Shown piece after piece: positions 4,273-46,480 of a stretch of 64,000 nt of DNA. Position numbers and translations under genes: made by a program. The DNA lies in assembly GCA_964549615.1 (NCBI GenBank), contig CAZJVP010000090.1, positions 1-64,000 of the forward strand, written 5' to 3'. How positions within the stretch are numbered: the stretch's first letter is position 1; the number at the start of each line of letters is the position of its first letter. The notes under the pieces are model-generated. The model saw only the letters and a list, made by a program, of their open reading frames with translations, was not told the origin of the DNA and did no database searches. The stretch is from an uncultured Thermococci archaeon (GTDB lineage Archaea; CAYQAE01; CAYVLA01).

Positions 4273-5514
4273 TCAAAGGTACCCTGCCCTGGTCATTCGC
4301 ACCTCGCGGTACAGCCTCCTCCTGACCATGACCACCCAAAGGACGACGCCGCAGATAAGCAGGGTACCGGTGACTGCAAGCCACTCCGCCAGATACACCC
4401 ACATCATCGCGGCGTCCTTCAGCTTCACTGCTTCCTTCTCCAGCTCGTCGACCGCCTGCTCGGCTTCCTTGAGAAGCGAGAGGGCTGCGTCGTAATCCTG
4501 CCTTATGTACGCAGCCTCCGCAGCTCGGACGGTCTGGTCGATCTGCGCCATGTGGCTGTCCAACTTGGCCGAGCTTCCACCGAAGCTCTCCACGAAAATG
4601 AAGAGCGATGTGAGCAGCGCCCTTTGATTCGTGAGGCCGAAGAACTTTCCTCGTATGGTGTGAACGAGGGCCACATCCCGGGGAACGGGAACCCTGCTCG
4701 CGTACATGCCAACGTCCGCCGCGAAGTCGAGGTAGTAATCCCAGAGGCAGAAGCTTTCACCCCAGGCCGGCGTCCAGTCCGAGGTGAAGGCGATCGTGCG
4801 GCCCTGATGGTAGTCCCAAGCGTCCAAGAAAGGGAACTCTCCTTTCACCATACCAACGAGCCGGGCCAGTTCATCCGCGCCCTGCTTGACAGCCACGATG
4901 TTTAGGCCGTAGAAGGGAGGGCACCTCTCCCACGGAAGGTACTTCATGAGCTCGTTCTCCGGATCCACAACCTTAACACGGAAAGCGTCGGAGTCTGCCC
5001 GGCCTCCCGTGTGGAACTCAACGGGCAAGGCGTCCGCCACCGCGGTTCCGTCCCAGCTCGCATAACCCGCCCACCCGCCGAAGCTCTCGTATCCACCCAC
5101 CATGATCAGCCCAAGTCCGGCCTCCCGCACGCACCTTTCCATCCACACAACCTCTTCAGGCCGGAAGTTGAGAAGATGGACATCCGAGAGCAGGATCACG
5201 TCCAAGGAGTCCCTCATCTGCTCGAAGGTCTTGGGCATGTACTGCCTCATGTACCTGTGGACGTCCGATATCTTCCAGCCCTGGCCGAGAAGATCGTCCA
5301 GGCAGGCAGGGATGAGGGTGCCTACGAAGGTGGGGTCGGATCTGTAGATGTAGGCCGGATTTCGGGTCAGGATCGCGTCGCCGATGTAGATCAGGCGGAT
5401 CCTTCCCGTCTGTGGATCCCTGCGTCCCTCCTGAGCAGAAGAGAGGCCGCAGGAAAGCAACAGTAGCGATGCTGCAACAAGGGAGGAGCAAGTTGCTAAC
5501 TTCGATTGTCTCAC
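4273..5514 (-). CDS. Surface protein paralogue 1 (signal peptide, DUF1355/GATase1-like domain, helical stalk, C-terminal TM + RRRLYREV tail)
   Basis: GLGLIMVGGYESFGG, FTSDWTPAWG and FVESFGG; C-terminus WVYLAEWLAVTG...MVRRRLYREVRMT. Confidence 0.8.
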   Translation of the reverse strand: MRQSKLATCSSLVAASLLLLSCGLSSAQEGRRDPQTGRIRLIYIGDAILTRNPAYIYRSDPTFVGTLIPACLDDLLGQGWKISDVHRYMRQYMPKTFEQMRDSLDVILLSDVHLLNFRPEEVVWMERCVREAGLGLIMVGGYESFGGWAGYASWDGTAVADALPVEFHTGGRADSDAFRVKVVDPENELMKYLPWERCPPFYGLNIVAVKQGADELARLVGMVKGEFPFLDAWDYHQGRTIAFTSDWTPAWGESFCLWDYYLDFAADVGMYASRVPVPRDVALVHTIRGKFFGLTNQRALLTSLFIFVESFGGSSAKLDSHMAQIDQTVRAAEAAYIRQDYDAALSLLKEAEQAVDELEKEAVKLKDAAMMWVYLAEWLAVTGTLLICGVVLWVVMVRRRLYREVRMTRAGYL

Positions 5515-5605
5515 GCCCCCAGATTGCGTTGCCGAGAATTAAACGTTGTGGACCCGTCCTGACGGAGGGCCTTCTGCTCCGCTAGCACGGCTTGTGGTGC
5601 GGTAG

Positions 5606-5935
5606 CTAGATGGCAATGCCCTGGTCGGCCAGCCTCTTTTTGAGCAGTGCGACGAGCTCAGGCTCGCCCCTTTTGTATACATCCGGGATGTCGAGGACTG
5701 CGATCTTGCCCCTAGCTTCAGGGGATATGCGCAGGACGGCCTCCTTATGCTCATCCTCCATGACGAATATCCGGTCGGCCCACTCTATGTCCTCCGCCGA
5801 GACCCTTCTGCGAGCCCATTCCCAGGTGCCGCCCGACCTTACCTGGAAGCCGGGCCTGTCTTTCACAAGATCCTCAGCCGTCTTGCTCCTGTCAAGGTTC
5901 GCGGTGCAGACGAACAGGATCTTCTGGGTCATCAA
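5606..5935 (-). CDS. Low-molecular-weight protein-tyrosine phosphatase-like protein
   Basis: N-terminal P-loop CX5R (FVCTANLDRS), plus WADRIFVME and LDIPD. Confidence 0.8.
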   Translation of the reverse strand: MMTQKILFVCTANLDRSKTAEDLVKDRPGFQVRSGGTWEWARRRVSAEDIEWADRIFVMEDEHKEAVLRISPEARGKIAVLDIPDVYKRGEPELVALLKKRLADQGIAI

Positions 5936-5961
5936 GACACCTCCTTTCCTCTTGCGGCAGG

Positions 5962-7077
5962 TCAGCGCCTCCGCGTTTCAAGGATCTCTTTGATGGCCTC
6001 GACCGCCGGCTTGTCGGACCCATCCTCGTTCGTTATCGCAAGGCCCCGGAATGCCGGGTTGCCGCACATGTCCTCCTTCGGTATCGGCCTCCAATGCCAG
6101 AGGTTGAACCCGTATCCTTGATCGAGGGCGCTCGTTATCTTGGCGGCGAGCACCCTCGCCTGATTCTCTATGCCATGCTCACAGATGCTGGCTCCCAGCT
6201 CGCCGACTATCAACGGGACGTCTGGGTAGAGCGCCTTGAAGAAGCCTGCCCTCCTCTCAAGCTCAGCCGCGATCTCGTCAGCGGTCCTGTCCTCCCATCC
6301 ATAGAAAACCATGCTCAGGAAGTCGAAGGTATACTCGCCCTCGATCGGGGATTCCCCTTCCGCCCAATCCAAGTTGATCAAGCTGCAGTCGTGGTATCCG
6401 ATCCGAAACTCGCCCCGAAGGTTCGGATCCAGCCTGGACGGTAGGCTCCCCAAGGTCTCGCGAAGGTAGGCGGCATGAATCCTCGCATCCCGGTAGGGAT
6501 CCAGCCCCTCCGGCTCGGTCCCCTCGGTGAAGAGGACGATGTAGACCATGTCATGGAAGTCTTCTATCCGTTCCAGGAACTCCCCGACGTACCTTTCGAA
6601 TGCATCGTACATGGTCCGGTTGGTGATCCAACTCCCGGGGTCTATGCCCTCGGGCGACCAACCCTTGCCGAGGTAGTTGAGGCCGAGGATCGCCTCCATC
6701 CCGTTTGCCCGCAACAGCACCAGCACCTTCCTCAGATGCTCGAACCGGCCGAGATTGTAGACCGGGGGTTTGGCCAGCGGCTTGGGGTTGAACTCTGCCC
6801 ACGGGTTCACGATCCATATGGTGTTGAAGCCGGTAGCCTTGATCTTGGGCAACGATCTTTCCAGCTCCTCGTAGTATGTCTCCTCGTCGAACGGGAAGAC
6901 GTAGAAGGTCACGCTCCTGATCATGCTGTAGTCGCCCGCCTCGCCTTCGCCATACGGCCGTCTTGCCGTCTCAAGGTACGCCACCAGCACTGCGATCGCC
7001 GCGGCGAAGGCCACACCGATGATCACGTACCGGCCCGCAATAATCACCGGCCAACCCCCTAGCTTACCCACCGGCAA
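5962..7077 (-). CDS. Membrane-anchored clan GH-A-like glycoside hydrolase
   Basis: N-terminal hydrophobic helix; GFNTIWI, candidate acid/base in FTEG and candidate nucleophile in VGELG. Start codon uncertain. Confidence 0.6.
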   Translation of the reverse strand: MPVGKLGGWPVIIAGRYVIIGVAFAAAIAVLVAYLETARRPYGEGEAGDYSMIRSVTFYVFPFDEETYYEELERSLPKIKATGFNTIWIVNPWAEFNPKPLAKPPVYNLGRFEHLRKVLVLLRANGMEAILGLNYLGKGWSPEGIDPGSWITNRTMYDAFERYVGEFLERIEDFHDMVYIVLFTEGTEPEGLDPYRDARIHAAYLRETLGSLPSRLDPNLRGEFRIGYHDCSLINLDWAEGESPIEGEYTFDFLSMVFYGWEDRTADEIAAELERRAGFFKALYPDVPLIVGELGASICEHGIENQARVLAAKITSALDQGYGFNLWHWRPIPKEDMCGNPAFRGLAITNEDGSDKPAVEAIKEILETRRR

Positions 7078-8908
7078 GCGAACCGGGAAGGATAACGAGG
7101 CGCAGCCTAGCTGAATTCCCCTCGATGGGCATCTCGATCAGCGCACGGTGGACCTCGCTTTGGAACTTCTTGTCCTTGAGATCCACCTGCTCGACCGCGA
7201 CCTTTGGTTGCTGCGCGTCGATGCGGACCTCGATCCCAGCCCTCTCGCCGGTTATGCGAAGCGCGCCTTCCCCGCACCGGCAGATGCTTCCCCAGGTGTA
7301 TAGCGGACATGCATACTGGCCAGACTGTCCCAGCAGCTTGACGTCGTCCGTTATCTCCACCCGGGGCGGGCTTGCGCCTCTGTGTAGGGCCATCGTCCTA
7401 CGAAGGCTCCCAAGCCCTATGCCCGCTGGATAGGCGTCTTTCAGCTCCAGGCACAGTGCGTCCTTAGATTTCGAGGTTCTGTGCTCAAGCACCTTAGCAG
7501 CGTGCTGCGGTCCCGGCGCCTGTTGATGCCCATTCACGAGAGGTACGTTGTGACCCCAGGAGGAGTTGACGAGGATGTCGTATCTGCGGGGCCCGAAGTA
7601 GTCCTTGGTGTAGGATCCTGATCCGAGATCAACGATCAGCGACTCACCCCCAAAATGCACTATGAAGTTGCCCAGGTCATTGTGGTTGTGGTTCTCGCCG
7701 TTGTGGCCCCCCTTCGCCGCCAGCATCAGGCATCCGTCGTCTGCAGGGTCGGACCGACTGATCATCCATTGCATGCCGGGGTAGTAGACGTGCATTTCCC
7801 GGTTCAACCCGCCTGGGTGGGGCCGGTCTGGCATCCAGACCAAGTCCCTCAGCCCCCATGTTCGAGGCCCAGCATCGTACTGGTATTGTGCGAACGCGTT
7901 CACCTGCTCCAGGCCCAGACGGCGACCCAGATAGAACATCAGGGAGGCCGGGAACGCGACCTGGGGGCTGCAGTCTGAGAAGTTCACAACGTTTTGGCCG
8001 CTGAGAGTCACCCGCTGTGGAAACATGGCAATCCCATCCATCTCCGGGGCGTCCATGAGGGAGATCTTGCCATCCGTCCTGGCCTCCAGAAGATACGAAA
8101 GCCAGGCGTAGTTGGACACGCCATAGCTCCAGTAGCCGGGCCCTTCCTCGCACCCGCCGCCCTGGTCGAAGCTTCGCAGATAGCAGTTCATGGATCTGAT
8201 GCACTTCTCGATCATTGCTGCGAGCCTTCGGCGTTCCTGCATCTCCAGCAGGGCCGACCCGACGACCCCGCAGTTGCACACTGCCGTCCAGTTGTTCACA
8301 TGCCCTCTGCCTCCGCCGAACATCCACCAGAGATCGTCGTGCTCCAGGTAGGGCCGCCAGCATCTCCTGTCGATCTCGTACAGGATCCGCTGCCTGATCA
8401 TTGGATCATGCTCGTCCAACCTGTCACCCATGATGTAAGCCGCCTCGGCAAGGGTTCTCGCAGTCTCAGCCGACACGAGGTCAACCCACGAGAAATCCCG
8501 GTACTCGGGCAGCGATGTGCGGCTGTGGGCCGGTATCACCCAACTGCTTTCCTCACATATCGCCCATGCATGGTCCATGATGGCGTCCATGCAGCGTCCC
8601 TTGCGCTCGATGCATTCCCCGATGACGAGCGATATCAGGCGCGAGCGCCTCGCATGGATGATCCCGTCGTGGGGAGACCTGTCTCCAGTCCTTGAGTAGT
8701 TGAGATAGAGCGAGGCCGGAACTGCAACGATAGGCTCCGCGAGTTCCTTGTCCAACTTCCCCAGCCATTCACCGACGGAGATTCCAAGCATCGGATTGCT
8801 GAGAATGCCTTGCCAACTACCCTCATCGCGGTACCTTGGCAGAGGAGCCCGCCCCGTCGTGTCCCTGAGGATCCGGTCGATCTCTGCGCGATCCAACTCC
8901 CTTATCAT
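7064..8908 (-). CDS. Heparinase II/III family protein
   Basis: NNWTAVC, GGCEEGPGYWSYG, AKGGHNGENHNHNDLGNF and GHNVPLVNG. Confidence 0.85.
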   Translation of the reverse strand: MIRELDRAEIDRILRDTTGRAPLPRYRDEGSWQGILSNPMLGISVGEWLGKLDKELAEPIVAVPASLYLNYSRTGDRSPHDGIIHARRSRLISLVIGECIERKGRCMDAIMDHAWAICEESSWVIPAHSRTSLPEYRDFSWVDLVSAETARTLAEAAYIMGDRLDEHDPMIRQRILYEIDRRCWRPYLEHDDLWWMFGGGRGHVNNWTAVCNCGVVGSALLEMQERRRLAAMIEKCIRSMNCYLRSFDQGGGCEEGPGYWSYGVSNYAWLSYLLEARTDGKISLMDAPEMDGIAMFPQRVTLSGQNVVNFSDCSPQVAFPASLMFYLGRRLGLEQVNAFAQYQYDAGPRTWGLRDLVWMPDRPHPGGLNREMHVYYPGMQWMISRSDPADDGCLMLAAKGGHNGENHNHNDLGNFIVHFGGESLIVDLGSGSYTKDYFGPRRYDILVNSSWGHNVPLVNGHQQAPGPQHAAKVLEHRTSKSKDALCLELKDAYPAGIGLGSLRRTMALHRGASPPRVEITDDVKLLGQSGQYACPLYTWGSICRCGEGALRITGERAGIEVRIDAQQPKVAVEQVDLKDKKFQSEVHRALIEMPIEGNSARLRLVILPGSLAGG

Positions 8909-9043
8909 TGCCTCTCCCGCCGCGCAAGCACCTGCGGTCTTCGGCTTCGGCCGATTTAATGCCTACCCTATCGCTACTCTTTCCAGCGGCAACCAGATGT
9001 CAAAGATTTATCCAAACACGGCAACGGACCAGCCAGTGAGTCC

Positions 9044-10288
9044 TTGCGGGTCCCGCTCCTGGGCTTGCTGGCAATGATCGCCCTCGCCACCGCCCTACCC
9101 CTCGTGCCGGCAGGGCAATATCCGACCGGGAAGCAGCTCGTCCTCGACTTCCTCATGGTCGGTGATGTCGACGGATGGGTGAACCACCTCGGCGACGACG
9201 AGCCTGCCATCACCATGACCTTGGTCCCCTGCAGGGCATTCGCCCTGGCCATGCCCGATGCGGACCTCTACAGGCTGAGTAGGGTCTACTTCCCCCGGAC
9301 CAAGGAACGGCTGTCCGAATTCGAGGTGCTCTTCTTCAACCACCCCAGGCTGAGCTTCTTCACGTTCCTTCAGCAGGAAATGATGGTGAACTTCGTTGCG
9401 ACCAAGGGGAAGGTGTCGATCGCCTATCCGCTCAGCCACTATGAGGACGTGCAGGTCCCTTGGCTGAACAGCCCGCTCTGCAAGGCCTTCCCGGTCGATG
9501 CGGAGAGGTTCTATGCGGCCAAGACCTTGGGCCTGCCCGACGAGTTCCCGGGCTTCGCTGGCCTTGAGCTGGAGCTGGGTCGGCCCCCCGTTTTCAGCGT
9601 CTTCCAGCCGGCTGGCCTGTTTGGCGCCAAGATCTACGAAAAGGCAAGGCCCGCCTATGCGAAGGAGGGTGCAACGGTCTGGCTCACCATGACCGGCGGT
9701 CCGGCCAACGTCCCCAAGGCCCCTGCCTTCATTTCATGGCCCTACGGATCCTCCATCGCCTGGGCCTTCGGCCTGCACCCGGGAAGCCGGCTCAAGCACT
9801 GGACCGAGAAAGGGGATTGGTGGGAGCTGGCCTTCCTGAACGTCTGCATCTATACGATGGGCGAGGAGACGCTGAACTTCGATGAGCTCGTTGAGATGCG
9901 CTTGGTCAAGAGCCAGTTCGCGTTCTACCGTGGGCTCTCATCCATGTTTCAGAGCATCGTTGACTTCGTATCCACGATGGGCGCGAACACCGCCTTGGCG
10001 GAGCGACTGCAGCTGGAGGCGGACGCGAGAAGGGCCATGGCCGAAGCCTATTACCTCTCAAGGGAGTTCGACCTTGCGAGCGAGGAGATGGAGGAAGCCT
10101 TGGAGGTTGCGCACCGGGCGACCGACGAGGCAACAAGGGCAAAGGAGCGTGCCTTGACCTGGATCTACCTCTCCGAGTGGCTCGCAACCGCTGCGGCTTC
10201 CCTGGTCTCAGCGCTGGCGGTGTGGGGGTTGATGATCAGGAGAAGGCTGTACAGAGAGGTGGGCACGACCCAGGCCAGGCACCTCTAG
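9044..10288 (+). CDS. Surface protein paralogue 2 (most divergent ectodomain)
   Basis: Signal peptide; RVYFPRT and FVSTMGAN; C-terminus WIYLSEWLAT...MIRRRLYREVGTT. Confidence 0.8.
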   Translation: MRVPLLGLLAMIALATALPLVPAGQYPTGKQLVLDFLMVGDVDGWVNHLGDDEPAITMTLVPCRAFALAMPDADLYRLSRVYFPRTKERLSEFEVLFFNHPRLSFFTFLQQEMMVNFVATKGKVSIAYPLSHYEDVQVPWLNSPLCKAFPVDAERFYAAKTLGLPDEFPGFAGLELELGRPPVFSVFQPAGLFGAKIYEKARPAYAKEGATVWLTMTGGPANVPKAPAFISWPYGSSIAWAFGLHPGSRLKHWTEKGDWWELAFLNVCIYTMGEETLNFDELVEMRLVKSQFAFYRGLSSMFQSIVDFVSTMGANTALAERLQLEADARRAMAEAYYLSREFDLASEEMEEALEVAHRATDEATRAKERALTWIYLSEWLATAAASLVSALAVWGLMIRRRLYREVGTTQARHL

Positions 10289-10354: not shown

Positions 10355-11587
10355 CTACCTCGTTCTGAACTGGGTGGATGCTACCTGCCTGTACATGCGG
10401 CGCCGCACCATCAGGCTCCACAGCACGAAGCCGCAGACAAGAAAGGTCGCGGTCACGGAAAGCCACTCCGACACGTAGACCCATAGCAGCGCCTCGTTCT
10501 TCACGCTCTCAGCTACCGATTCAGCATGATCCATCAGTTCCAACGCCCGTGCGGCCCGCTCCAAGGCCGCCTCGAAGTCCTGCTCGAGATAGAGGGTTGC
10601 GGCCTCGGCCTTGACGGAGTCCGCGTTCTGGAGCGCAAGGTAAACCTTCTTTGGATTTGCCCCGAACTTGTCAACGAAGTCTATGAGGGACGCAATGATT
10701 ATCCTCCGGTAGGCGAAGGTGGCCATCCTGGTCCTCACCGTGTGCACCAGATCCAGGTCTACGGGTATTGGCCTCTTGGCGCAGTAGAGCATCAGGTTTG
10801 TTGCGAAATCGGGGAGGTACTCCCAGGTCAGAAAGACCGCCCCTCCTCCTGGCGTCCAGTCGCCGGTCATAGCAAATACCGTTCCGTTGCGGTACTCCCA
10901 TGTTGAAAAGAAGGGATTCTCGTAGCCTTTGTGGAATCCAGCATCTATGGTAACGATCGCCAGCACCTGTGCGCCGGCCCTTGCTCTGACGATGTTGGAG
11001 TCGTACCTGACCAGAAACGGAAGGTCCGGCCGCCAGGGGAGGCTCCTCATGAAGACATGCTCAGTGTCCAAGATCGTAACCTTGCCGCCCAGATACGATC
11101 CAGCCTCGGTGTCCACGGGCAAGACCTCACCGACCGGCGTGACCCCCCAGTCCATGTTGCCAGCTACCCCGCCGAAGGTCTCGTATCCGCCTATCATGAC
11201 GAGCCCCAACCCCTCGGCCGCAACGGCGTCCCTGAACCACACGCGGTGCGCGGCGGTAAAGCTGTCGACGTTGGAGTCGCTTATGATGATCACGTCGTAG
11301 CTCTGCACAAGCGACTCGTACGTCCTGGGCATATAGACGCGGATCGCCCTAATAATATCCTGCGCCGAGATCCCGGCGTAGTGGGCCCTTGAAGCCTGGA
11401 CCGGCGTTACCTCAAGGAACGGTTCGGCCTTCATGTGGATGTACGGAGTTTGGCCCGGGTAGGGATCGCCTGTGTAGAGCACCCTCACCTTGGATGGCGT
11501 TTGGCCCGTCGCGAAAGGCAGGAGCAGAGATATGAGAAACATCACGAAGAGGGATGAGGCAACGCGTAGCATCGGCGTCCACCTCAA
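10355..11587 (-). CDS. Surface protein paralogue 3
   Basis: KVRVLYTGDPYPG, GLGLVMIGGYETFGG, GDWTPGGG and FVDKFGAN; C-terminus WVYVSEWLSVT...MVRRRMYRQVAST. Confidence 0.8.
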   Translation of the reverse strand: MRWTPMLRVASSLFVMFLISLLLPFATGQTPSKVRVLYTGDPYPGQTPYIHMKAEPFLEVTPVQASRAHYAGISAQDIIRAIRVYMPRTYESLVQSYDVIIISDSNVDSFTAAHRVWFRDAVAAEGLGLVMIGGYETFGGVAGNMDWGVTPVGEVLPVDTEAGSYLGGKVTILDTEHVFMRSLPWRPDLPFLVRYDSNIVRARAGAQVLAIVTIDAGFHKGYENPFFSTWEYRNGTVFAMTGDWTPGGGAVFLTWEYLPDFATNLMLYCAKRPIPVDLDLVHTVRTRMATFAYRRIIIASLIDFVDKFGANPKKVYLALQNADSVKAEAATLYLEQDFEAALERAARALELMDHAESVAESVKNEALLWVYVSEWLSVTATFLVCGFVLWSLMVRRRMYRQVASTQFRTR

Positions 11588-11873: not shown

Positions 11874-12290
11874 TCACTTGGGGAGCCATCCTGAGGTTCT
11901 CAGGATCTCCTGAACCTTGCTGAGAACGAAGACCGCATCGCGATGCGCCTGTCTTGCCTCGCGTTCCCCATACAGTTTCTCGCCGTAGAAGGCAGGACCC
12001 CTCTCCTCACAGAGACGAGTGCACACCCAAGCCATCCTGTCCAGCATTTCCCGATCCACCTCCCCGATCTTCTTCCGCACGGCGTCTGCGAAGACCCTGC
12101 CGACGTCGTGGATCTTCGGGTACTCAACGCCCAAAACAGCAAGTCCTCCCTTCAAAGCAAGCTCGGCAACCTCCTGGGCGCGTCTTACCGCCATGCTGAA
12201 ATCGCCTTCTCGCAGTGCACCCTCAAGGTCCCGCTTACAAAGCCTCTCTGCGCTTAGAAGGAGGTCCTGTCCTTTCTTGCGGTTGTTCAT
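11874..12290 (-). CDS. HEPN domain protein (MNT-HEPN pair)
   Basis: AQEVAELALKG...YPKIHDV...RGPAFYG. Its ATG overlaps the MNT stop codon (ATGA). Confidence 0.85.
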   Translation of the reverse strand: MNNRKKGQDLLLSAERLCKRDLEGALREGDFSMAVRRAQEVAELALKGGLAVLGVEYPKIHDVGRVFADAVRKKIGEVDREMLDRMAWVCTRLCEERGPAFYGEKLYGEREARQAHRDAVFVLSKVQEILRTSGWLPK

Positions 12291-12793
12291 AAGCTGAATA
12301 CCTCGCCGGGCTTTAGGTCTGGTTTCAGATCCCAGTACCATGTCCCGTCGTCCAGCCAGACCCTCTTCGACCCTAGCTGCCTGAGACGTTGCTTCACCTC
12401 CTCAAGCCTTTGGGCGAAGAAACCGCCGCGATCGTGGAGTATCCTTGCGTCCTCCACCATGTCCAGGTAGATGTACCTGTTCTCCCTTGCCTCCTTCATC
12501 GACAGGATGAGGTAACTGATTCTGGGTTCGGTGCCCAGACTTCTCATCGATCTCCTGAACACATCCTCTTCGCGGAGGCGGGACTGTACATCGAGAACCC
12601 GGTCCAAACGGCGGTGATAGTTCCTAGCCGGGTTCCTGATTATCAACAGAAGGTCGATGTCGCTCTCAGGCTTTGCCACGCCTCTAGCCACGGAGCCGTA
12701 CAGGACGACGGAGACCAGGGATTCCCCCAGTGTCTCTTTCAGCAACTCCACGAGCTTCTCTAAGAGCTCGCTGTAGAATTCAAACCCGAGCAT
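12287..12793 (-). CDS. Minimal nucleotidyltransferase (MNT) domain protein
   Basis: VVLYGSVARG...SDIDLL; archaeal MNT C-terminus WYWDLKPD. Confidence 0.85.
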   Translation of the reverse strand: MLGFEFYSELLEKLVELLKETLGESLVSVVLYGSVARGVAKPESDIDLLLIIRNPARNYHRRLDRVLDVQSRLREEDVFRRSMRSLGTEPRISYLILSMKEARENRYIYLDMVEDARILHDRGGFFAQRLEEVKQRLRQLGSKRVWLDDGTWYWDLKPDLKPGEVFSL

Positions 12794-13239
12794 CTGGCCG
12801 TTCCTCGTCCTCCTCAAGGTTGCGCACCGCTTTGCCGGACCATGCGCAGACATGACGATGTGACTATACCAGCGCGCAAACAACGGTGAAGGACCTCTTA
12901 AAGCTTAGCTTGGTTCGGTTCCTTGGGCGAGGGCACCAAGTGGCGTGGGGATCCAGTTGCGGAGAATACTGTCCACAAGTTCCGGGAGGACACCGTCTCT
13001 GCATGTCCAAGTCTCGCGCACGCTACACATTTGGCAAAGGATCTTGCGGGGGACACAAGGAAGCGCCTTTGGCATCCCAAGCGCTCGAATGCCTCAGAAT
13101 GAGGTTGTCAGGCCGTTTGTCGTTTTCTGGGATTCACGTGTTCTGGCGTGGGACGTAGCAGGCAATGTGGTTTTCCGCGACCGTTCGTTGGCCCAGTGGG
13201 GACAGCCAGATGGGCAGCTGGGGTTCGAAAACCACTCGC

Positions 13240-15405
13240 TTACTGGTCAGTCGAATTCCCCCGCCAGATCAGCTTAGCAGGGATGGCGTAGAGCTCGTCC
13301 ACCCCCTCACGAAGGTAGAACGGTAGTTTCTCCTTGAGCCCGATCTCGCTAGTGTCGATGTCCTTGAAGCCCAACTTCAAGGCCGGCGACCCCGGCCTGA
13401 GGTGGAAGTTCCCGTTGGCGGGATCCACGAACATCGGATCCGCCACTATGCTGTGCTGATCGTACTTCCTGTCGAGGATGGTCAGCCATCTCTCCCAAGA
13501 CCCATCTGCCGGGCCGCCGCTCACGGTAAGCGGGCCGTTTGGCTTCCAGATGAGGTTGTAATCCGAAACCGCGACCCTGGTGTCGTTCCAGTTGATGAAA
13601 CCGTACACATCGCCCTTGGCCCCCTGGATGTAGATGATGTTTCTCAGGTATTCATGGCCCTGTGCCAGCTCGCCCGCCATCTCCATGCTCCTGATGGCCG
13701 CGGCGTTGCCGGGTGCCACGACGAGTATGTTGTTCTCTATCCTGTTCCCAACACCTTTGGTGAAGATGCATTGGTCGCCCCCTATTCCCATGACGTTGTA
13801 GATGATGTTGTTTGTAACGGTGAAGTAGTCCGCCCCGTCATCAAGGTAAATGCCGCTCTGCAGGGTAAGCCTGTAGTTACCAACGTCATGGATCAGGTTA
13901 TGATCGTACGTGTTGTCCCGCCCCGGCCCCCAGCATTCCATTGCCCCGGTATCCTGGCTGTCCAGATTCACATCGTGTATGTGGTTGTAGGCTATGAGGT
14001 TGTTGTGGGAGTAGAGATAGTCGTAATGGTTCTCTCGGGTTGCGCCCTCGATTCGCTTGATGATCTCGGTTGAGATCAAGCCCTTGATGGTCGTGCCGTA
14101 CCGGGGCATGTGGTGGATCTCGTTGTGCAGGATCTTGTTGTGGCCGCTCTGCGAGATCTCAACGCCGTAGCCGTGGCCGACTAGGCACCCGCAGTGGTGT
14201 ATGTGGTTGTTTTCCACGACGTTGTCATGGTTCACATCCGGCCCGCCGCCCACCCAGTATCCGGTCAGGGAGACGCCGTGCTGCCCATTGAACCGGATCA
14301 GGTTGCCGTAGACCACGATCCCTTGGGCGTGGTACGCTATCATCACCCCGTTGAGCCCCCCATTCTCTATCCGGCAGTACTTGACCGAGCAGTTCTCGGC
14401 CCCGCTTATTTCGACCACGTGCTTATTGCAGATGCCGAGCAAGAGGCCCTCGAGATGGACGTTCCTGACGGGTCTCTCGCTGGATCCCTTGATGAGAACC
14501 ACATTATCGGCGGTCGAGACCACCATCGTCTGATCCCCAATGGGTTCGCGGCTTGGCCAGCAGTAGACGTAGCCCTTGCTCAAGCTTATCTGGGCCTCGC
14601 CCGGATCGTCAAGAAACGCAAGCACGTTCCTGATGAAGTAGCGATTGCCCGGCGTCATGTCGTAGCCAGAGGCGGTTCCCATGGTGATGATCCTAGCCTC
14701 CGGGTCGACGTCGACTATGGGTTTCTCGGCCGAGAACCAGTCGTGCCCGGGCCAGATGAAAACCCTAGCGTCGGCGAAGTCCAAGCCGCTCGGTTCCAGG
14801 TCGGTGGGCTGGTAGTAGAAGGCCGTCTTTTCCTGTCCTGGGACCGGCCCGGCGATCTTGAAGTAGTCCCATTCGGGCTTGCGCGCCAGTTCCATCCTCC
14901 GCCCGTTCTCGAAAACTTGGAGGGGTTTCGTCCCGTTGGGTATCGGCGCTCGCCAGATCCCGTGCTGGTGTGGGGCCCAGTCGGTTAACCTCAGCCCTCC
15001 AACCAGGCTAGGCGTCTCCGCCGGGTACGCGGCGTACGTTATCGAATGCTCCTCGGTACCCGAATCCTCGGGTCCCAATGCGAATCCCTCCGGAAGGTAG
15101 TAGGTACCCCCTCTGACCAAGACCCTTACGTCCTTGGTCAGGTTTTCGGCGACGATTCTCCGAACCTCATCGCGGGCCCTCTGAAGGGTGGCGAAAGGCC
15201 CATCCGTCCTCGCGCGGTTCGGTGAAGGAAGCGTGCCTGACCATGAATCATTGCCGTTCGTTGCCACGTAGAAAGTCAACTCCGCCTGTTCCCTGCGCCT
15301 CAAAATCATCGACCCGAATGCCAGTGCAACCAGCGCGATTAGGATCACTCCGGCTACCTCCCTTCTGGGCAACAACGACGATCCCGCCCTGCTGAAGACC
15401 TGCAT
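13240..15405 (-). CDS. Membrane-anchored right-handed parallel beta-helix protein (pectin lyase-like glycan enzyme)
   Basis: N-terminal TM; FYVATNGND...DGPFATL; repeated N-x-I-x-x-N-x-I-H-H motifs; DPMFVDP...LRPGSPA. Confidence 0.8.
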   Translation of the reverse strand: MQVFSRAGSSLLPRREVAGVILIALVALAFGSMILRRREQAELTFYVATNGNDSWSGTLPSPNRARTDGPFATLQRARDEVRRIVAENLTKDVRVLVRGGTYYLPEGFALGPEDSGTEEHSITYAAYPAETPSLVGGLRLTDWAPHQHGIWRAPIPNGTKPLQVFENGRRMELARKPEWDYFKIAGPVPGQEKTAFYYQPTDLEPSGLDFADARVFIWPGHDWFSAEKPIVDVDPEARIITMGTASGYDMTPGNRYFIRNVLAFLDDPGEAQISLSKGYVYCWPSREPIGDQTMVVSTADNVVLIKGSSERPVRNVHLEGLLLGICNKHVVEISGAENCSVKYCRIENGGLNGVMIAYHAQGIVVYGNLIRFNGQHGVSLTGYWVGGGPDVNHDNVVENNHIHHCGCLVGHGYGVEISQSGHNKILHNEIHHMPRYGTTIKGLISTEIIKRIEGATRENHYDYLYSHNNLIAYNHIHDVNLDSQDTGAMECWGPGRDNTYDHNLIHDVGNYRLTLQSGIYLDDGADYFTVTNNIIYNVMGIGGDQCIFTKGVGNRIENNILVVAPGNAAAIRSMEMAGELAQGHEYLRNIIYIQGAKGDVYGFINWNDTRVAVSDYNLIWKPNGPLTVSGGPADGSWERWLTILDRKYDQHSIVADPMFVDPANGNFHLRPGSPALKLGFKDIDTSEIGLKEKLPFYLREGVDELYAIPAKLIWRGNSTDQ

Positions 15406-15813: not shown

Positions 15814-17223
15814 TCAGTACGGAAGGGTCGACTGAACCAGAACCGCTTCGGGCGGGGAGCATATGTGCAGCTCCTGACCGAGGTCAACCTCGCCGGTCCA
15901 GACGGGACGAGGAAAACCTTCCAGATCGACCATCGTGTCCTTGCTGTAGAGGAATGCCTTCGTGTGCTGCCTTCCCGCGTCCGGGAGCTTGACGTTTACG
16001 TCGACTGGCTTTGGTCCGCGGTTGACCAAGCAGATGGACCAGGCCCTGCACCCGAATCCGGACGGAATGCTTGCGACAAGCAGCCGCCAGTCCTGGGAAG
16101 GTTGTTGCGTTCGATACGTGGCACACCCCTTCGGGAAATACCTCGACAGAAGCGACCAAGCATGGAACCAAGGCCGCAGTTTGAGTCCCTTCTCCTTGTT
16201 CGTCCACATGCCCCAGTAGAAGCCGGGGTGCGAGTTGTCGTCCAGCATCCAGGCTGAGACGGCGCTAGCGCCTGCGCGGGCCGCCTGGACCGCGTAATCG
16301 GCCATGAAGAGGCCGTAGTCGTAACTGTCTATTCTCCGGTTGCCATAGGGATGATCCGCCTCGTCGTTAAGGCCCGCCTCGCCCACGACGAAGGGCTTCC
16401 CGCCCGACTCAGGGTCGTTGGCCCGGATATACTCCAACTGTTGGCGGAGGTACCCCTCCAGCAAACCTGGGCGGACGACGTCATCGCGCTCGTAGCGGTG
16501 GATCTCGTAGGCGCCGAGCAAGATCCGAAGCTGATCCACCGAGTTGCGGAGCCATTCATCGGCGTTGGAGTGGTCCGGCCCCATGAGAGTGACCCGTTCG
16601 TCCAGGTGCCTTTCGGCGAAAACGCGCGCGACGTTCTCCAAGCCCGTCTTCCACCTATCCCAGTCCCCCACCTCGTAGTTGGGCTCGTTGACGAGGATGA
16701 AGTACTTGATGCAGCTGTAACCCCTCTGGTTCACCAGGTAGTCCATGTACGTGCCGATCGCCTCCGCATAGACCGGATCCGCGACATCCTTGACCCCAGG
16801 AATCCTAAGCCACTCCGGCTCGCAACCCCAGTCCGTGAGGAGGACGGTGATGCCCTCTCGCTGGCAGAGGTCGAGCTGTCGGTACAGCCTCTTCATCTCG
16901 GGGGTTTCCCAATCGAACTTTCCCTGCCCAAGGTAGCACCACTTGGTCTGCATCATGGACCTGACCACGGGCAGCCTCATCCATCGGATGCGATCGGCGA
17001 TCAGTTCGAAGTCCTCGTCCGTCACCCCATGCTCGTCGTAGCCCCTGGAGTCCCACTCTGCGCCGAAGCCCAGAAAACTATCGCGGGAGACCAACTCCAA
17101 CGCGATCGAAGCTGGCCCGGCCTTGCCGCGCCTGGATGTCAGGCCAACTGAGCAGAGCCACGCAAGCGCCAACCCGCATGCTAGGCCCGCGCCCCATGCC
17201 ACCCGCCTCAGCGTCGCTTGCAA
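15814..17223 (-). CDS. Secreted/anchored clan GH-A glycoside hydrolase (GH30/GH39-like)
   Basis: Signal-like N-terminus; FLGFGAEWD, VNEPN and VVGEAG; C-terminal beta-sandwich. Confidence 0.7.
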   Translation of the reverse strand: MQATLRRVAWGAGLACGLALAWLCSVGLTSRRGKAGPASIALELVSRDSFLGFGAEWDSRGYDEHGVTDEDFELIADRIRWMRLPVVRSMMQTKWCYLGQGKFDWETPEMKRLYRQLDLCQREGITVLLTDWGCEPEWLRIPGVKDVADPVYAEAIGTYMDYLVNQRGYSCIKYFILVNEPNYEVGDWDRWKTGLENVARVFAERHLDERVTLMGPDHSNADEWLRNSVDQLRILLGAYEIHRYERDDVVRPGLLEGYLRQQLEYIRANDPESGGKPFVVGEAGLNDEADHPYGNRRIDSYDYGLFMADYAVQAARAGASAVSAWMLDDNSHPGFYWGMWTNKEKGLKLRPWFHAWSLLSRYFPKGCATYRTQQPSQDWRLLVASIPSGFGCRAWSICLVNRGPKPVDVNVKLPDAGRQHTKAFLYSKDTMVDLEGFPRPVWTGEVDLGQELHICSPPEAVLVQSTLPY

Positions 17224-17281
17224 CCTTGTTTCCTCCGGTGGAGATCACGAGGGCTCAGAGAGCATTGGCCGCGTCAGGAGG

Positions 17282-18481
17282 CTAACGCGCTCTTGTCACC
17301 TTGACCTCTCTGTACAGCCGCCTCCTGATCATCAGGGTCCACAACAGAGCCCCGCAGATCATGGCGGTTGCGGTCACCGCGAACCACTCAACCACGTAGG
17401 TCCATAGCAGCGCCCGCTCCTTGAGCGCCATCAACTGATCCGACAACGATCTGAACATCTCCTCGGTTTCCTGCAGCCTCGATAGCGCGTCAGGGTAGGC
17501 CTGCTCGAGGTAGAGCTGCTCGGCGTTCCTCTCCACAAGGCCAATCTCTACAAGGCTTCTCTCGGCGGGAGAAATCCGAGCGCCGAACTTCTCAACAAAC
17601 TCCATCAGGCTAATCGCAAGCGCCCGCCTCGTGAAGTAATTGTGGAACCTCGTTCGGATGTCGTGCATGAGATCGAGGTCCTCGGGGATCTTTGCGCCAG
17701 CGTTGAGGAAGTTCATGTTGACCACGTAATCCGGGTAGAATCGCCAGTCATACATTACTGAAGTGCCCCACGCTGGCGTCCAATCCGGCGTGTGGGCGAG
17801 ACCCGAACCTTCCCCGTACTGCCAGTAGACCAGGACGGGGTGCTTTGGCTCGGCCGCCATCTGCAGGAGAATCTTGGCTCCCTCCTTGGGCTCAACGACG
17901 TTCATCCCGCCGAACGGCGGCATCGTGTTCCACGGCAGCGACCTAACGAAGGGGTCATCCGGATAGTTGGCCACCACCTTGAAGCTGATCTCGTAAGTCT
18001 TTCCATCAACGCACTCCACAGGCAACGCCTCCTCTACGGACGAACCCTTCCATGTGGGATAGCCTTTCCCCCCGAAGGCCTCGATTCCCCCGACCATCAT
18101 GAGGCCCATCCCCGTCTTCTCGACGCCGCGCTTGAACCACTCCAGCTGATCGGCCCTGTACAGCCCCCGGTTGGTATCGCTGAGAATGATCAGATCGTAG
18201 GAAGTGGTGAGGTCATCGAAGGTTCTCGGCATGTAAACCCTCATGAACTGGCGCAGCTGGCGATCGTTGTAGGTGCCTATGTGGGCATAGGTCGCGGGGA
18301 TGGGCGTCCCGGTGAAGGACGGCTCCTCCATCATGTAGGTGTAGGGGGTTGGACCCCATGCATCGCCGATGTAGAGGATCCTGATCCTGTTGGTTACCGG
18401 ATCCCTGCGGACATCGCGGCCGCATGCTCCTGGGATCTGGGCAGTTATCAAAACCAGGACAACAGCGCATGCGGCTCTCAT
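17282..18481 (-). CDS. Surface protein paralogue 4
   Basis: RRDPVTNRIRILYIGD, GMGLMMVGGIEAFGG, PDWTPAWG and FVEKFGA; C-terminus WTYVVEWFAVT...MIRRRLYREVKVT. Start placed at the ATG before the signal peptide. Confidence 0.8.
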   Translation of the reverse strand: MRAACAVVLVLITAQIPGACGRDVRRDPVTNRIRILYIGDAWGPTPYTYMMEEPSFTGTPIPATYAHIGTYNDRQLRQFMRVYMPRTFDDLTTSYDLIILSDTNRGLYRADQLEWFKRGVEKTGMGLMMVGGIEAFGGKGYPTWKGSSVEEALPVECVDGKTYEISFKVVANYPDDPFVRSLPWNTMPPFGGMNVVEPKEGAKILLQMAAEPKHPVLVYWQYGEGSGLAHTPDWTPAWGTSVMYDWRFYPDYVVNMNFLNAGAKIPEDLDLMHDIRTRFHNYFTRRALAISLMEFVEKFGARISPAERSLVEIGLVERNAEQLYLEQAYPDALSRLQETEEMFRSLSDQLMALKERALLWTYVVEWFAVTATAMICGALLWTLMIRRRLYREVKVTRAR

Positions 18482-18606
18482 TCTGTAAGTACCGTTTCGG
18501 GCCCACGATAAAAAACCTACGTTCCTGCCTGGAACTGCCCACCCGGACATCGTCGCGGCCGGCCTGTTGTCCAGACGCCACATCACTCCCCAACCGATCG
18601 AGACCT

Positions 18607-24154: not shown

Positions 24155-24436
24155 CGGCTGCTGGGATTCCCTAGGGTGAAAAAATGTATGGTTCCACCCA
24201 CGGCAATGGCTCTTGGTTCCGCGGGAAAATGCTCGCATGAGGAAGCTCAAGAGTTCCGTGTCGCGCGTTGGTTGGCTCGCCGGCCTAGGGGAGGAGTGAC
24301 CGGACTTTGCTCGCTCCGCCCAGCGGGTGCATCGGCCCCCGTCTTCCCGGGAAAGAGGAAAGAGGCCAAAGTTAAAAGGCACTTCGTCGTATGGTGGAGC
24401 ATGGCGCACAAGATGCAAGCTGCGCCTCCCCGGGCT

Positions 24437-38668: not shown

Positions 38669-38696
38669 GGCTCCGGTCTGTTCGTGGCGGGGCACC

Positions 38697-42674: not shown

Positions 42675-42728
42675 AGTTCAGGCAAAAAATTTATGTTGCG
42701 CTTTAAAGATATCCCTTCGGGCTAAGCG

Positions 42729-43936: not shown

Positions 43937-43996
43937 GGAGAGTCTCCAGAATACATTTAACGCAACCGCCAACCGACGCACTTCGAAGGGACCAAG

Positions 43997-45217
43997 TTGA
44001 TCAAGGTCGCCAAGTTCGGCGGCACGAGCATAGGGACGCCCGCCAGGCTTCGCCGCGCGGCAAGATCGATCCAGAAGCAGGTGGCAAGGGGCGACCAACT
44101 CGTTGTGGTTGTCTCGGCAATGGGACAAACGACAGACCAGCTCCTACGCCTGGTCGGGGATCTGAAGGTCAACCTTCCCGACATGGCCATCGACGAGATC
44201 CTGTCGATGGGGGAGAGGCTGAGCGCGAGGCTGCTCTGGGCCCTGCTGGACGCGGCCGGCGTGAATTCGGTTTTCCTCGATCCCTCCATGCCGGAATGGC
44301 CAATAGTCACCGACAGCAACTTCCGCAAGGCAAAGGTCGATCTCAAACGCACCCTGCAGAGGTGCAAACGCTACCTTCTTCCCCTCGTCAGGAGCGGGTG
44401 CGTTCCGGTCATCTGCGGGTTTCTCGGCAGGGATCGGGAGGGCAGGACCACGACGCTGGGTAGGGGCGCGAGCGATCGCACGGCATTCCTGCTGGGGTAC
44501 TGTCTGAATGCTGACGAGGTCATCATCGTCACCGACGTGGACGGCGTCATGTCGGCCGATCCGAGGATCGTAAGGGATGCAAGGTTGATCAGGTCAATCA
44601 AGTTCGAAGAACTCTGGAACCTGAGCGTGGGGGGCGCGCAGGTCCTGGAGTGGGGTGCCCTCAGCTTCAAACTGCCCAATCAGAGGGCAAAGATCATACA
44701 CTACAGAAGAGGCGATCTGGATTCAGGAGGAACTGAGATATTGGGTTCGCCAAGTTCGGATCTGCGCGTGTCGCTCCACGACCGCCCCGTGACCTCGGTC
44801 ACGGTCGTCGGCGAGCGCATGAGCCAAGTACCCGGCCTGCTTGCCCGCTTCTCCGAGGCACTGGCCACCGCCGATATCAACGTCGTCGGCGTGAGCACCG
44901 GCAGTTGGTCGATCAGCTTCTTCGTCGAAAGCGATCGGAGCGAGTCAGCGGTGAAAGCGCTGCACAGCGTGATCTCGGGCCCTGCAAAGGCGGTGACGAG
45001 CGGCGAGCGGTGCGCCATGATAACCATCGCGGGCGGCAAGCTCATCTATACGCCGGGGATCATCGCGAGGGCACTTCTCCCGCTCGCGCAGAGCAACGTG
45101 AACGTCGTTGAGGTTTCGACGAGCAAGGCGGAGATCACCGTTTTCGTGAAATGGGCTGACCGGAATACAGCCCTTCGGCTCGTCGAAGATTCCTGTTCCA
45201 AGGTCGATCTTTCCTAG
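43997..45217 (+). CDS. lysC: Aspartate kinase with two ACT domains
   Basis: KFGGTS, VVVSAMG, GERLSA, TTLGRGASD and TDVDGVMSADP. Confidence 0.9.
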   Translation: MIKVAKFGGTSIGTPARLRRAARSIQKQVARGDQLVVVVSAMGQTTDQLLRLVGDLKVNLPDMAIDEILSMGERLSARLLWALLDAAGVNSVFLDPSMPEWPIVTDSNFRKAKVDLKRTLQRCKRYLLPLVRSGCVPVICGFLGRDREGRTTTLGRGASDRTAFLLGYCLNADEVIIVTDVDGVMSADPRIVRDARLIRSIKFEELWNLSVGGAQVLEWGALSFKLPNQRAKIIHYRRGDLDSGGTEILGSPSSDLRVSLHDRPVTSVTVVGERMSQVPGLLARFSEALATADINVVGVSTGSWSISFFVESDRSESAVKALHSVISGPAKAVTSGERCAMITIAGGKLIYTPGIIARALLPLAQSNVNVVEVSTSKAEITVFVKWADRNTALRLVEDSCSKVDLS

Positions 45218-45238
45218 GAAGTCGGCGCCCGCCGGACT

Positions 45239-46480
45239 TCACAGGCGCCTCGTCTGGATCGAGTCCTCACGAAAGCTGGTTCTACCCACGTCCCTATACA
45301 GGGCACGTTGAAACATGAGAGTCCAGACCGCCACGCCCACGACAAGCGAGACCCCCGTCACAGCCAGCCATTCGGAGACGTACACCCAAAGAAGCGCGTC
45401 CCTCTTAACCTGCTCGGCCACCGCCTCAGCCTCGGCCATCAGGTCGAGCGCTGACTTCGCCTCTCCCAAGGCCTGGGCGAACTCCTGCTGAAGATACAGG
45501 TCGGCGGCCTTCCTCTGCGCCTCCTCGCATTGCCGCAGGACGACGAGAACCCTTCTCGGGTTCGCGCCGAAGCCCTCAACGAAGTCCAAGAGACCGGCGA
45601 CCAGCATCCTTCGAAACCCCAAGCTTGCAAAGGCCGCCCTGACATCGTGAACCATCCTATAGTCCTGCGGCACGGCCCTCTTCGAGCAGTACAGCATTAG
45701 GTTGGTGACGAAGTCAGGGAGGAACTCCCACTGCAGGAAGAGAACGCCTCCTCCCGGCGTCCAGTCGCCGGTCATGGCGAAGACCCGGCCATTCCCATCG
45801 TAGTCCCACACGGAGAAGAAGGGATTCTGCCAGCCGACGTAGCGACCCCGGTCGATCGTGCTGATGGCTAGGACATCGCTTCCATCTTTCGGCATGACGA
45901 CGTTGCAGGCATAGTTCTGCAGGAACGGAAGATCCGGGCGCCACGGCAGGCTCCCGATGAACTCGTTCCCCATGTCAACGATCCTTGTAGGACCACCCTC
46001 GTAGACCCCCCTGATGGTTGCCACGGGCAGCACATCCCCCACGGGGGTTGGCCCCCACTCCGGGTGCTGTCCGTTTGTGCCGTAGGTCTCGTGCCCCCCG
46101 ACCATGACAAGGCCCATGCCGGACTCGGACACCGCCCTCTTGAACCAGACCAGTTGGTCCCCAGAGAAGCTGGCAACATTGGAATCGCTTATGATCAGCA
46201 CGTCGTACGTCCCTACGAGTTCCTCGTAGGAACGGGGCATGTAGACCCGAATGGCTCGCAGGATGTCCTTCTGCGAAATGCCGGCATAGTGGTCACGGGA
46301 GGCTTGGACGGGCGTGACGGCCAGAAACGGTTCAACCCTCATGTGGATGTACGGAGTTTGCCCAGGGTACGGGTCTCCCGTATAGAGAACTCTGACCTTG
46401 GACGGATCTTGAGCGGCTGCTACGCCCCAGGTCAAGGCGCAGACGGCGATGAGGCCGTTCAGAAGCGCGAAGCGACCCAT
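45239..46480 (-). CDS. Surface protein paralogue 8 (closest to paralogue 3)
   Basis: PSKVRVLYTGDPYPGQTPYIHM, GDWTPGGG and FVEGFGAN; C-terminus WVYVSEWLAVTG...MFQRALYRDVGRT. Confidence 0.8.
   Translation of the reverse strand: MGRFALLNGLIAVCALTWGVAAAQDPSKVRVLYTGDPYPGQTPYIHMRVEPFLAVTPVQASRDHYAGISQKDILRAIRVYMPRSYEELVGTYDVLIISDSNVASFSGDQLVWFKRAVSESGMGLVMVGGHETYGTNGQHPEWGPTPVGDVLPVATIRGVYEGGPTRIVDMGNEFIGSLPWRPDLPFLQNYACNVVMPKDGSDVLAISTIDRGRYVGWQNPFFSVWDYDGNGRVFAMTGDWTPGGGVLFLQWEFLPDFVTNLMLYCSKRAVPQDYRMVHDVRAAFASLGFRRMLVAGLLDFVEGFGANPRRVLVVLRQCEEAQRKAADLYLQQEFAQALGEAKSALDLMAEAEAVAEQVKRDALLWVYVSEWLAVTGVSLVVGVAVWTLMFQRALYRDVGRTSFREDSIQTRRL

Follow-up and report, generated by a model that had tools for sequence, protein, structure and literature searches.

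The first 64,000 nucleotides of contig CAZJVP010000090.1 (C90:1-64000, hereafter the window) come from an uncultured Thermococci archaeon, genome G000 (3.21 Mb, 104 contigs, 99.5% complete, with archaeal rRNA genes), and carry eight genes of a family of membrane-anchored surface proteins with diverged heads and a conserved transmembrane (TM) and tail module. Three DNA sequencing runs bear the label hot springs metagenome; one of them, the only run to contain most of the stretch, may be its source. The original prediction had placed eight open reading frames (ORFs) here, and all eight prove to be open at the coordinates and on the strands given below, encoding 399–414 amino acids (aa); two of them start at an ATG inside a longer frame (17282-18481 inside 17282-18610, and 24437-25663 inside 24002-25663). 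The eight proteins can be aligned over their full length (8/8), with 23–40% identity to the first, and 17 of the 24 invariant columns of the alignment lie within the last ~107 residues. With Pfam matches reported to E ≤ 0.1, the GATase1_like domain PF07090 scores above its gathering score of 27 bits in four copies (28.6–80.6 bits) and below it in one (19.8 bits); the three copies for which it is not reported still align over their full length.

4273-5514, minus strand: copy 1 (P0001, 413 aa); signal peptide, PF07090 head (80.6 bits), helical region, TM helix, and RRRLYREV tail; family hidden Markov model (HMM) E = 6.5e-173
9044-10288, plus strand: copy 2 (P0002, 414 aa); family HMM E = 3.4e-119 over columns 2-405; no Pfam match
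10355-11587, minus strand: copy 3 (P0003, 410 aa); PF07090, 60.6 bits; convergent with copy 2
17282-18481 (ORF to 18610), minus strand: copy 4 (P0004, 399 aa from the ATG); PF07090, 67.8 bits
17285-17422, minus strand: conserved module of copy 4, aa 354-399; juxtamembrane K..AL.W.Y..EW, TM helix, and cytoplasmic RRRLYREVKVTRAR
17693-18394, minus strand: GATase1-like (PF07090) ectodomain of copy 4, aa ~30-263; family profile versus PDB 2gk3, 3rht, and 3soz
19716-20918, minus strand: copy 5 (P0005, 400 aa); family HMM E = 1.0e-157; of a subfamily in which GLGLGLIEF replaces GLGLxMxGG
21318-22562, plus strand: copy 6 (P0006, 414 aa); family HMM E = 6.2e-163; divergent from copy 5, adjoining a sulfatase gene
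24437-25663, plus strand: copy 7 (P0007, 408 aa); PF07090, 19.8 bits (under the cut-off); divergent from the sulfatase gene
45239-46480, minus strand: copy 8 (P0008, 413 aa); PF07090, 28.6 bits; tail variant FQRALYRDV

Copy 2 has the most divergent head of the window: its GLGL and RxYxPRT motifs are degenerate, its tail is intact, and its nearest paralogue is 32.6% identical. Copy 1 has its nearest paralogue on contig C74 (58.5% identity), copies 3 and 8 are 60.7% identical, copies 5 and 6 are 37.4% identical, and copy 7 is 79% identical to a copy on C11. In copy 4, the module positions K354, A357, W360, Y362, E365, T372, W381, M384, R387, L389, Y390, V393, and T396 are conserved in 105 relatives.

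The predicted order of parts is preserved across the 126 full-length copies of G000, defined as six-frame ORFs spanning more than 330 of the 405 positions of a profile built from the eight window copies: signal peptide, PF07090 head, helical region, TM helix, and tail. Specifically, the N-terminus comprises a basic stretch, 15–20 hydrophobic residues, and small residues, and ends 5–10 residues before the first strand (RIRVLYxGD). Tat and lipoprotein export were considered as general routes and discarded: RR-motif-like sequences occur in 11/126 copies and lipobox-like sequences in 16/126, and, as both are in the minority, export is generally of the Sec type. The head (columns ~25–285) is followed by a helical region at columns 286–304 (ending FGAN), 308–331, and 334–364, with a hydrophobic periodicity of 3.5–3.6. 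The ~70-aa helical stalk of the original prediction is indeed helical and reads as three amphipathic helices rather than as a single stalk; the third of them (334–364) continues directly into the TM helix. Sec-like signal peptides, a basic tail after the C-terminal TM helix, and the avoidance of glycosylation sites described below bear out the view that these are single-pass surface proteins.

The GATase1-like core of the head is PF07090 (formerly DUF1355), both by Pfam scores and by profile matches to solved members. In particular, a 105-sequence family profile matches PDB 2gk3 at E = 5.5e-25 (profile positions 30–263), 3rht at 7.3e-25, and 3soz at 1e-23, and PF07090 is precomputed for most of the 120 relatives among the matches listed. 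The head residues conserved at ≥85% are G38, P54, R81, Y83, P85, R86, G124, W145, P155, G205, D256, P271, D273, and R281; conserved Trp/Tyr columns are found at 83, 145, 226, 251, and 253, beside several Arg/Asp columns. The motif RxYxPR is present in 106/126 copies. GLGLxMxGG, put forward as a hallmark, marks a part of the family, with its strict form in only 31/126 copies. A search for a catalytic nucleophile in the head revealed no Cys or Ser column at ≥60% among the 126 copies, and the only conserved His (column 278) lies beyond the PF07090 domain; with no conserved Cys column, the Cys-His-Glu triad of the amidotransferases is absent. The solved PF07090 proteins (2gk3/STM3548, 3rht, and 3soz) have, by sequence, the same domain as the family head, but they are ~250 aa long and two are named cytoplasmic by their depositors, whereas the family adds a signal peptide, RxYxPR, helices, and the TM/tail module.

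The profile of the eight copies yields 148 matches in G000. The 126 full-length copies lie on 47/104 contigs, and a further 24 partial rows correspond to frameshifted or stop-interrupted genes and contig ends; the prediction of eight dispersed paralogues was therefore correct as to dispersal and understated the number. Family aligned spans total 150 kb, or 4.67% of the genome, and 127 of 3024 called genes (crude longest-ORF calls) belong to the family. The copies are highly diverse, with a median identity of 28.6% over all pairs and of 53% (maximum 86.5%) to the nearest paralogue, and single linkage at 45% identity divides them into 63 subfamilies, the largest of which, with 15 members, includes copy 7. 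Only 9/126 copies share a contig with their nearest paralogue, and only 4/126 have it within 10 kb, which rules out tandem duplication as the mode of expansion. The statement that the genes never form a tandem array is nearly borne out, with three adjacent same-strand pairs genome-wide. Beyond the window, at C90:77270-78464, the contig carries a ninth copy, split over three reading frames and thus a pseudogene; other split or stopped copies are at C11:125018-126468, C52:38707-39920, and C26:388-1679, and at C74:18343-19524, which contains a TGA.

We searched 401 archaeal genomes: four of the taxonomic family f1 (G000–G003, of which G001 is of the same genus as G000 and G003 is 91% complete), the sister-family genome G004, and 396 of other classes. 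At E ≤ 1e-60, the protein family was found in 4/401 genomes, all of them f1, and in none of the 397 others; a looser search at E ≤ 1e-20, covering 41 archaeal genomes (37 of them non-f1), gave 4/41. At E ≤ 1e-40, G001 has at least 150 copies, G002 137, G003 90, and G004 none. Among 1.84 billion protein-cluster representatives there were 284 matches at E ≤ 1e-30 and 2235 at E ≤ 1e-3, one metagenomic homologue carrying a Theionarchaea label, and a scan of 185,579 species genomes for W-x-[LV]-M-[VI]-[RK]-R-[RK]-L-Y gave 168 relatives, the best 80 of which come from three records of metagenome-assembled genomes. Outside f1, PF07090 occurs in 32/397 archaea, in 1–2 copies (four in G004) and in ORFs of ~250 aa or 570–1030 aa; relative to these few copies, the family is expanded more than 100-fold. 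G004 encodes proteins of 573–964 aa with an N-terminal TM, a PF07090-like head, a C-terminal TM, and no match to the tail (L088:691-2673, minus strand; L087:1729-3447, plus strand), which are plausible ancestors of the architecture. Taken together, architecture, topology, and expansion leave little doubt that this is a lineage-specific family of type-I, Sec-secreted membrane proteins with a non-catalytic PF07090 head.

In agreement with the original prediction, which knew of no named system with this architecture, the proteins have no NCBIfam match (0 matches), and literature searches, with supplements left aside, found no paper describing the family, its architecture, or its archaeal expansion. 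Searches for archaea with sulfatase returned nothing relevant to the family, searches for Hadarchaeota with sulfatase returned none, and the accessible portions of papers on Theionarchaea do not mention it. Ten NCBI-sourced relatives that were looked up are named 'hypothetical protein' or 'uncharacterized membrane protein'. PF07090 itself is a known domain; the novelty lies in how the parts are combined, in the size of the expansion, in the conservation of the TM/tail, and in sequon avoidance.

The TM/tail module is the most conserved part of the protein, as had been predicted from the window: over the 126 copies, columns 361–405 have 2.81–2.86 bits per column, as against 0.94–2.34 in the other 20-column bins. 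The conserved positions of the anchor are K359, A362, L363, W365, Y367, E370, W371, V374, G376/T377, G382, W386, L388, and M389, those within the TM being spread over the helix and not confined to one face, and those of the tail are R391–R393, L394, Y395, R396, E397, V398, T401, and R402. The tail, RRRLYREVxxTR, comprises ~16 residues (first Arg to C-terminus, median 16, range 14–27). The earlier wording "near-invariant" is too strong, since [RK][RK]x[LMFA]Y[RK] is present in 91/126 copies and W.[YFH]..EW in 106/126. Among 1500 paralogue pairs drawn at random, the synonymous difference has reached saturation in head (0.645), helices (0.642), and tail (0.661), while the non-synonymous difference is 0.57, 0.53, and 0.35, respectively, indicating purifying selection on the protein sequence of the tail; the same saturation, tail included, excludes recent gene conversion as the source of its conservation. 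A tail-only HMM gives 136 ORF matches, namely the 126 copies and 10 family fragments or short ORFs, and a search with residues 330–399 found no longer protein carrying the tail. The module is confined to this one family, ruling out a portable tag.

The combination of a W.Y..EW motif, a TM helix, and an Arg cluster gives the C-terminus a tripartite look, and it might accordingly be read as a sorting or processing signal that one of two archaeosortases cleaves, attaching the protein to lipid or envelope. PEP-CTERM/PGF-CTERM cargo likewise has motif, TM, and Arg cluster on many proteins of one genome, with sortase homologues present, and exosortase/archaeosortase-family (PF09721) genes do occur here: two in each f1 genome (4/4) and none in G004, which lacks the family. 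Both genes of G000 (L093:4502-5359, minus strand, corresponding to C51:56501-57358; L094:5635-6465, minus strand, corresponding to C88:53634-54464) are unclassified, matching the general signature TIGR04178 only and no named subtype. However, the phyletic match between sortases and family is a single contrast, and the Pro signature of such cargo is absent: P[ET] within 20 residues at or before the TM is found in 0/126 family copies. P[ET]-TM-basic C-termini are instead present on 24 other G000 proteins (19 clusters or singletons; ~20 in [IV]PE form), the likelier cargo, and these candidates include the FG-GAP/carrageenase-propeller family. In addition, the family tail continues past the Arg cluster with ~12 strongly conserved residues (LYREVxxTR), an extension that is atypical for exosortase/archaeosortase signals, and the module sits on a single homologous family rather than being portable. 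Given a separate [IV]PE signal on other proteins and none on the family, the tail is probably not archaeosortase cargo; the sortase-like protease suggested earlier as a partner fits poorly, and we consider cleavage and attachment of this kind very unlikely. The two sortase genes and the P[ET]-type cargo look like an undescribed archaeosortase/cargo pair of their own, found in all four f1 genomes and not in G004.

The heads are strongly depleted in N-glycosylation sequons (N-X-S/T): the 126 ectodomains contain 19, compared with 120 ± 10 in shuffles, a ~6-fold depletion. Ser/Thr is asymmetric around Asn, at 1.7% at +2 and 8.4% at −2 (S+T background 10.6%); the asymmetry persists in non-conserved Asn columns alone (2.1% versus 9.6%) and in 254 external relatives (2.2% versus 11.0%). 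For the remainder of the G000 proteome the sequon density is 3.46 per 1000 aa (shuffle 2.69), and STT3/AglB genes are present in the genome. Two other sets of surface proteins, c4 and c7, described below, show the opposite of the family heads, with 10.4 and 9.05 sequons per 1000 aa, respectively. Sequon avoidance makes sense only for a domain that faces the oligosaccharyltransferase, and it argues that the heads lie outside the cell and have been selected to stay glycan-free.

The genes between and beside the window copies encode a xylose-isomerase-like TIM barrel, an alpha/beta hydrolase, a heparinase II/III-like protein, a beta-helix protein, an amidohydrolase, and a sulfatase. Three of these are located as follows.

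7064-8908, minus strand: heparinase II/III-like gene, no signal peptide (PF07940); upstream of a 371-aa protein and copy 1
13240-15405, minus strand: N-anchored right-handed beta-helix protein with a pectate-lyase-like fold (PF13229 at 3.1e-15) and an N-terminal TM
22598-24418, minus strand: sulfatase gene between copies 6 and 7 (PF00884 at 1.3e-44)

The claim that seven of the eight copies lie among glycan-degrading genes agrees with this glycan-catabolic context; copy 8 has housekeeping neighbours (aspartate kinase, CDC48). Genome-wide, the association with glycan-catabolic loci is also seen. First, 11/17 sulfatases lie ≤5 kb from a family gene, versus 26.7% of all other genes (binomial p = 0.001, with genes treated as independent). 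Second, we compared 125 of 223 directly flanking genes (from 40 stretches, ≥100 aa) with 125 of 2096 genes at least six genes away (from 20 gene-dense stretches), a comparison that is qualitative and drawn from the top-25 Pfam families of each set: the flanking set includes GH10 (×2), BNR_2 (×2), Hepar_II_III(_C) (×2), FG-GAP (×2), fucosidase, GH38, GH116, and GH20C, whereas the distant set is mostly housekeeping, with one GH2, GFO_IDH_MocA (×2), and Amidohydro_2 (×2). The two sets matched 114 and 183 Pfam families, respectively. Sulfatases number 22–47 in the sister genomes and are absent from G004, so that the expansions of both the family and the sulfatases are found in 4/4 f1 genomes and neither in G004 (a single contrast).

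Two protein families are enriched beside the family genes. The c4 family comprises 24–26 N-anchored proteins of ~285 aa, 16/24 of which lie within two genes of a family gene, and c7 comprises 14 proteins of ~335 aa, 8/14 of which do so. The c7 proteins are distantly related to the head (hhalign probability 89.8%, E = 1.8e-6) and possess a C-terminal TM and a coiled coil of their own. Neither c4 nor c7 has a Pfam or NCBIfam match, and c4 matched nothing above chance in the ESM Atlas. The three genes form a recurrent operon in the order family gene, c4, c7 (for example C94:45505-48566; representatives L005 for c4 and L008 for c7), although neither serves as a universal operon partner: c4 is directly downstream of 11/127 family genes, and c7 more rarely.

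The original prediction had further supposed that the heads plug into one shared membrane partner. None emerged from gene adjacency in G000: ABC ATPase cluster c1 is near family genes in 4/38 cases and not enriched (p = 0.8), coupling to ABC-2 or other ABC transporters was discarded for lack of enrichment near family genes, and the tail is found on one family only. Among those searched, conventional importer components are few, with 13 BPD_transp_1 matches and 1 match to SBP_bac_8, the only solute-binding-protein family searched. A partner could also be a single cytoplasmic transducer, to which heads that sense glycans would signal through the tail (Tyr395, Thr401), thereby controlling catabolic genes. 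The strong conservation of cytoplasmic Y395, R396, V398, T401, and R402, the position of family genes beside catabolic genes, and one family gene that shares a promoter with its downstream gene would suit such a sensor repertoire. Against this, the 16-residue tail has no signalling domain, kinases and regulators are not enriched near family genes, and the pairing with neighbours is not conserved between genomes; we give this explanation little credence.

The same neighbourhoods raise the question of whether the heads are themselves ecto-enzymes, a surface-displayed repertoire that would represent a new class of glycan-active hydrolase, lyase, or esterase with a flavodoxin-like fold. The polar residues R81, Y83, and R86 (of RxYxPR), D96, D256, D273, H278, and R281 are conserved, and the neighbouring enzymes inspected (heparinase-like, sulfatase, and fucosidase) have no signal peptide, both the heparinase-like and sulfatase genes of the window lacking one and the Pfam match of the sulfatase and fucosidase representatives beginning at residue 16–17, which could create a need for extracellular depolymerisation. 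The head, however, has neither a Cys/Ser nucleophile column nor a GATase triad, no activity is known for PF07090 or its solved members, and several of the conserved polar residues are located downstream of PF07090 and could have a structural role. Some divergent copies, P0002 among them, also lack several of the motifs while keeping the tail. An enzymatic role therefore appears quite unlikely.

The evolutionary history of the family was followed through copies 4 and 5. P0004 has orthologues in G003 (63% identity) and G002 (57%), clearly above the next-best paralogues (42–44%), and their neighbours are unlike those in G000. At the syntenic site of G001, P0004 is absent: the interval 17212-18622 (1.4 kb) corresponds to L077:2898-3100 (0.2 kb), with flanks that are syntenic at 77–81% nucleotide identity and with no flanking repeats seen around the presence/absence interval. 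The promoter-like A/T-rich stretch upstream of P0004 is retained in G001, where it stands directly before the gene of a 469-aa protein (15814-17223). The counterpart of P0005 has a TAG stop in G001 and is in three frames in G003. More broadly, 79 of 246 external full-length relatives show a best-to-second gap of ≥15 identity points, covering 44 G000 paralogues. Clear orthologues, together with gains, losses, and broken copies, indicate that the family is old and evolves by birth and death.

Such dynamics would also be expected of a variable surface coat or adhesin repertoire, which would serve for escape from viruses or grazers or for attachment to different surfaces and partners rather than for nutrient acquisition. 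Giardia variant-specific surface proteins (VSPs) and Methanobrevibacter adhesin-like proteins form very large dispersed families whose members combine diversified ectodomains with a conserved C-terminal TM and a short invariant tail, and the family resembles them in its dispersed copies, in its conserved TM and short tail beside diverged heads, in the absence of conserved pairing with neighbouring genes, and in its birth and death, with presence/absence within a genus and pseudogenes and frameshifted or stopped genes in G000 and its relatives. The folds, however, are unrelated, and the paralogues are ancient, with saturated synonymous sites, and stable as orthologues across genera. The heads also hold one fold, with ~14 core residues conserved at ≥85%, and the genes co-locate with sulfatases (significantly) and glycoside hydrolases. 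No family copy was found on viral contigs, which led us to reject viral carriage and which also speaks against a coat. A coat or adhesin function is thus unlikely; if it nonetheless applied, the repertoire would be among the largest known in prokaryotes.

We favour, with a probability of about 0.4, a putative glycan-binding role for the heads, as lectin/CBM-like surface receptors on a common anchor. The heads would be glycan-recognition modules, diversified into at least 60 specificities and kept free of N-glycans, with which a glycan-degrading archaeon would capture or sense glycans from its surroundings at the cell surface, and the juxtamembrane/TM/tail module would be a common chassis, serving for oligomer assembly or for docking all paralogues onto the same membrane or cytoplasmic machinery. 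A functional precedent for the fold comes from the N-terminal domain of Aspergillus Agd3 (CBM87), described as a proven, polysaccharide-binding carbohydrate-binding module with a flavodoxin-like, GATase1-like fold and, like the family head, no Cys-His-Glu triad, structurally closest to 3RHT per its authors and with conserved surface aromatics (PMC7229062). CBM87 is the one functional precedent for the fold outside the amidotransferases, and 3rht is among the best PDB sequence matches of the family. CBM87, which occurs in fungi or bacteria, is attached to an esterase and forms no paralogue swarm, whereas the family head sits on a membrane anchor. STM3548 (2gk3) remains uncharacterised and is encoded in a putative sugar-related locus (PMC13432705).

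Several observations weigh against a glycan-binding role. No sequence similarity to CBM87 was detected, Agd3 not being among the six PDB matches at E ≤ 1; PF07090 is without demonstrated function, and its solved members are cytoplasmic proteins with no assigned role. Sequon avoidance over the whole surface exceeds the need of a single binding site. The flank comparison is qualitative, no pairing of subfamily to enzyme family was found among the family copies in G000, housekeeping genes surround one window copy and many copies elsewhere, and gene neighbourhoods are not conserved, P0004 being absent from its syntenic site within the genus and its orthologues elsewhere lying beside other genes. 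Finally, the search by gene adjacency in G000 identified no membrane partner.

Beyond glycan binding itself, more than 100 glycan-free receptors with a GATase1-fold, lectin-like head and specificities of their own could all connect, through one TM/tail module, to shared machinery for uptake or signalling, a proposal that we regard as tentative and rather doubtful. Equally speculative is its corollary, that the family would do in archaea what Sus-like surface glycan-binding proteins do elsewhere, with a fold and an anchor that serve in this way in no other system. The earlier analogy to SusD has no sequence basis, as the eight copies have no SusD or periplasmic-binding-protein match at E ≤ 0.1; the likeness to SusD, surface glycan-binding, and solute-binding proteins is a possible functional analogy only, in the capture of glycans at the surface near catabolic genes, and those systems have an adjacent transporter and a lipid anchor, whereas the family has no adjacent transporter genes and a protein anchor. 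PF07090 is a widespread domain without known function, and the recognition and uptake of complex glycans by archaea are largely obscure. Should the heads prove to bind glycans, a function could be assigned to PF07090, and the family would offer an extensive natural collection of thermostable glycan binders and a testable model of archaeal glycan foraging. Whether the heads are receptors or a coat, the TM/tail module offers a handle for a partner search, and sequon depletion is an unusual and clean evolutionary signal.

The G000 inventory is itself unusual for an archaeon, with 19 sulfatase matches (17 of them used in the proximity test), 15 FG-GAP/lambda-carrageenase-propeller proteins, 30 GFO/IDH/MocA-GH109-like oxidoreductases, 31 URO-D-like proteins, and 38 DrrA-type ABC ATPases. 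In the window, two further proteins each adjoin a family gene, an N-anchored protein of 371 aa (5962-7077, minus strand) and the secreted 469-aa protein (15814-17223, minus strand); neither has a Pfam or NCBIfam match, and each may be a glycan-active protein of a kind not yet described. The interval that separates the beta-helix gene from a family gene encodes, at 11874-12883 (minus strand), a HEPN-domain protein (155 aa) beside a nucleotidyltransferase-domain protein (198 aa), the usual arrangement of a HEPN/MNT toxin-antitoxin pair.

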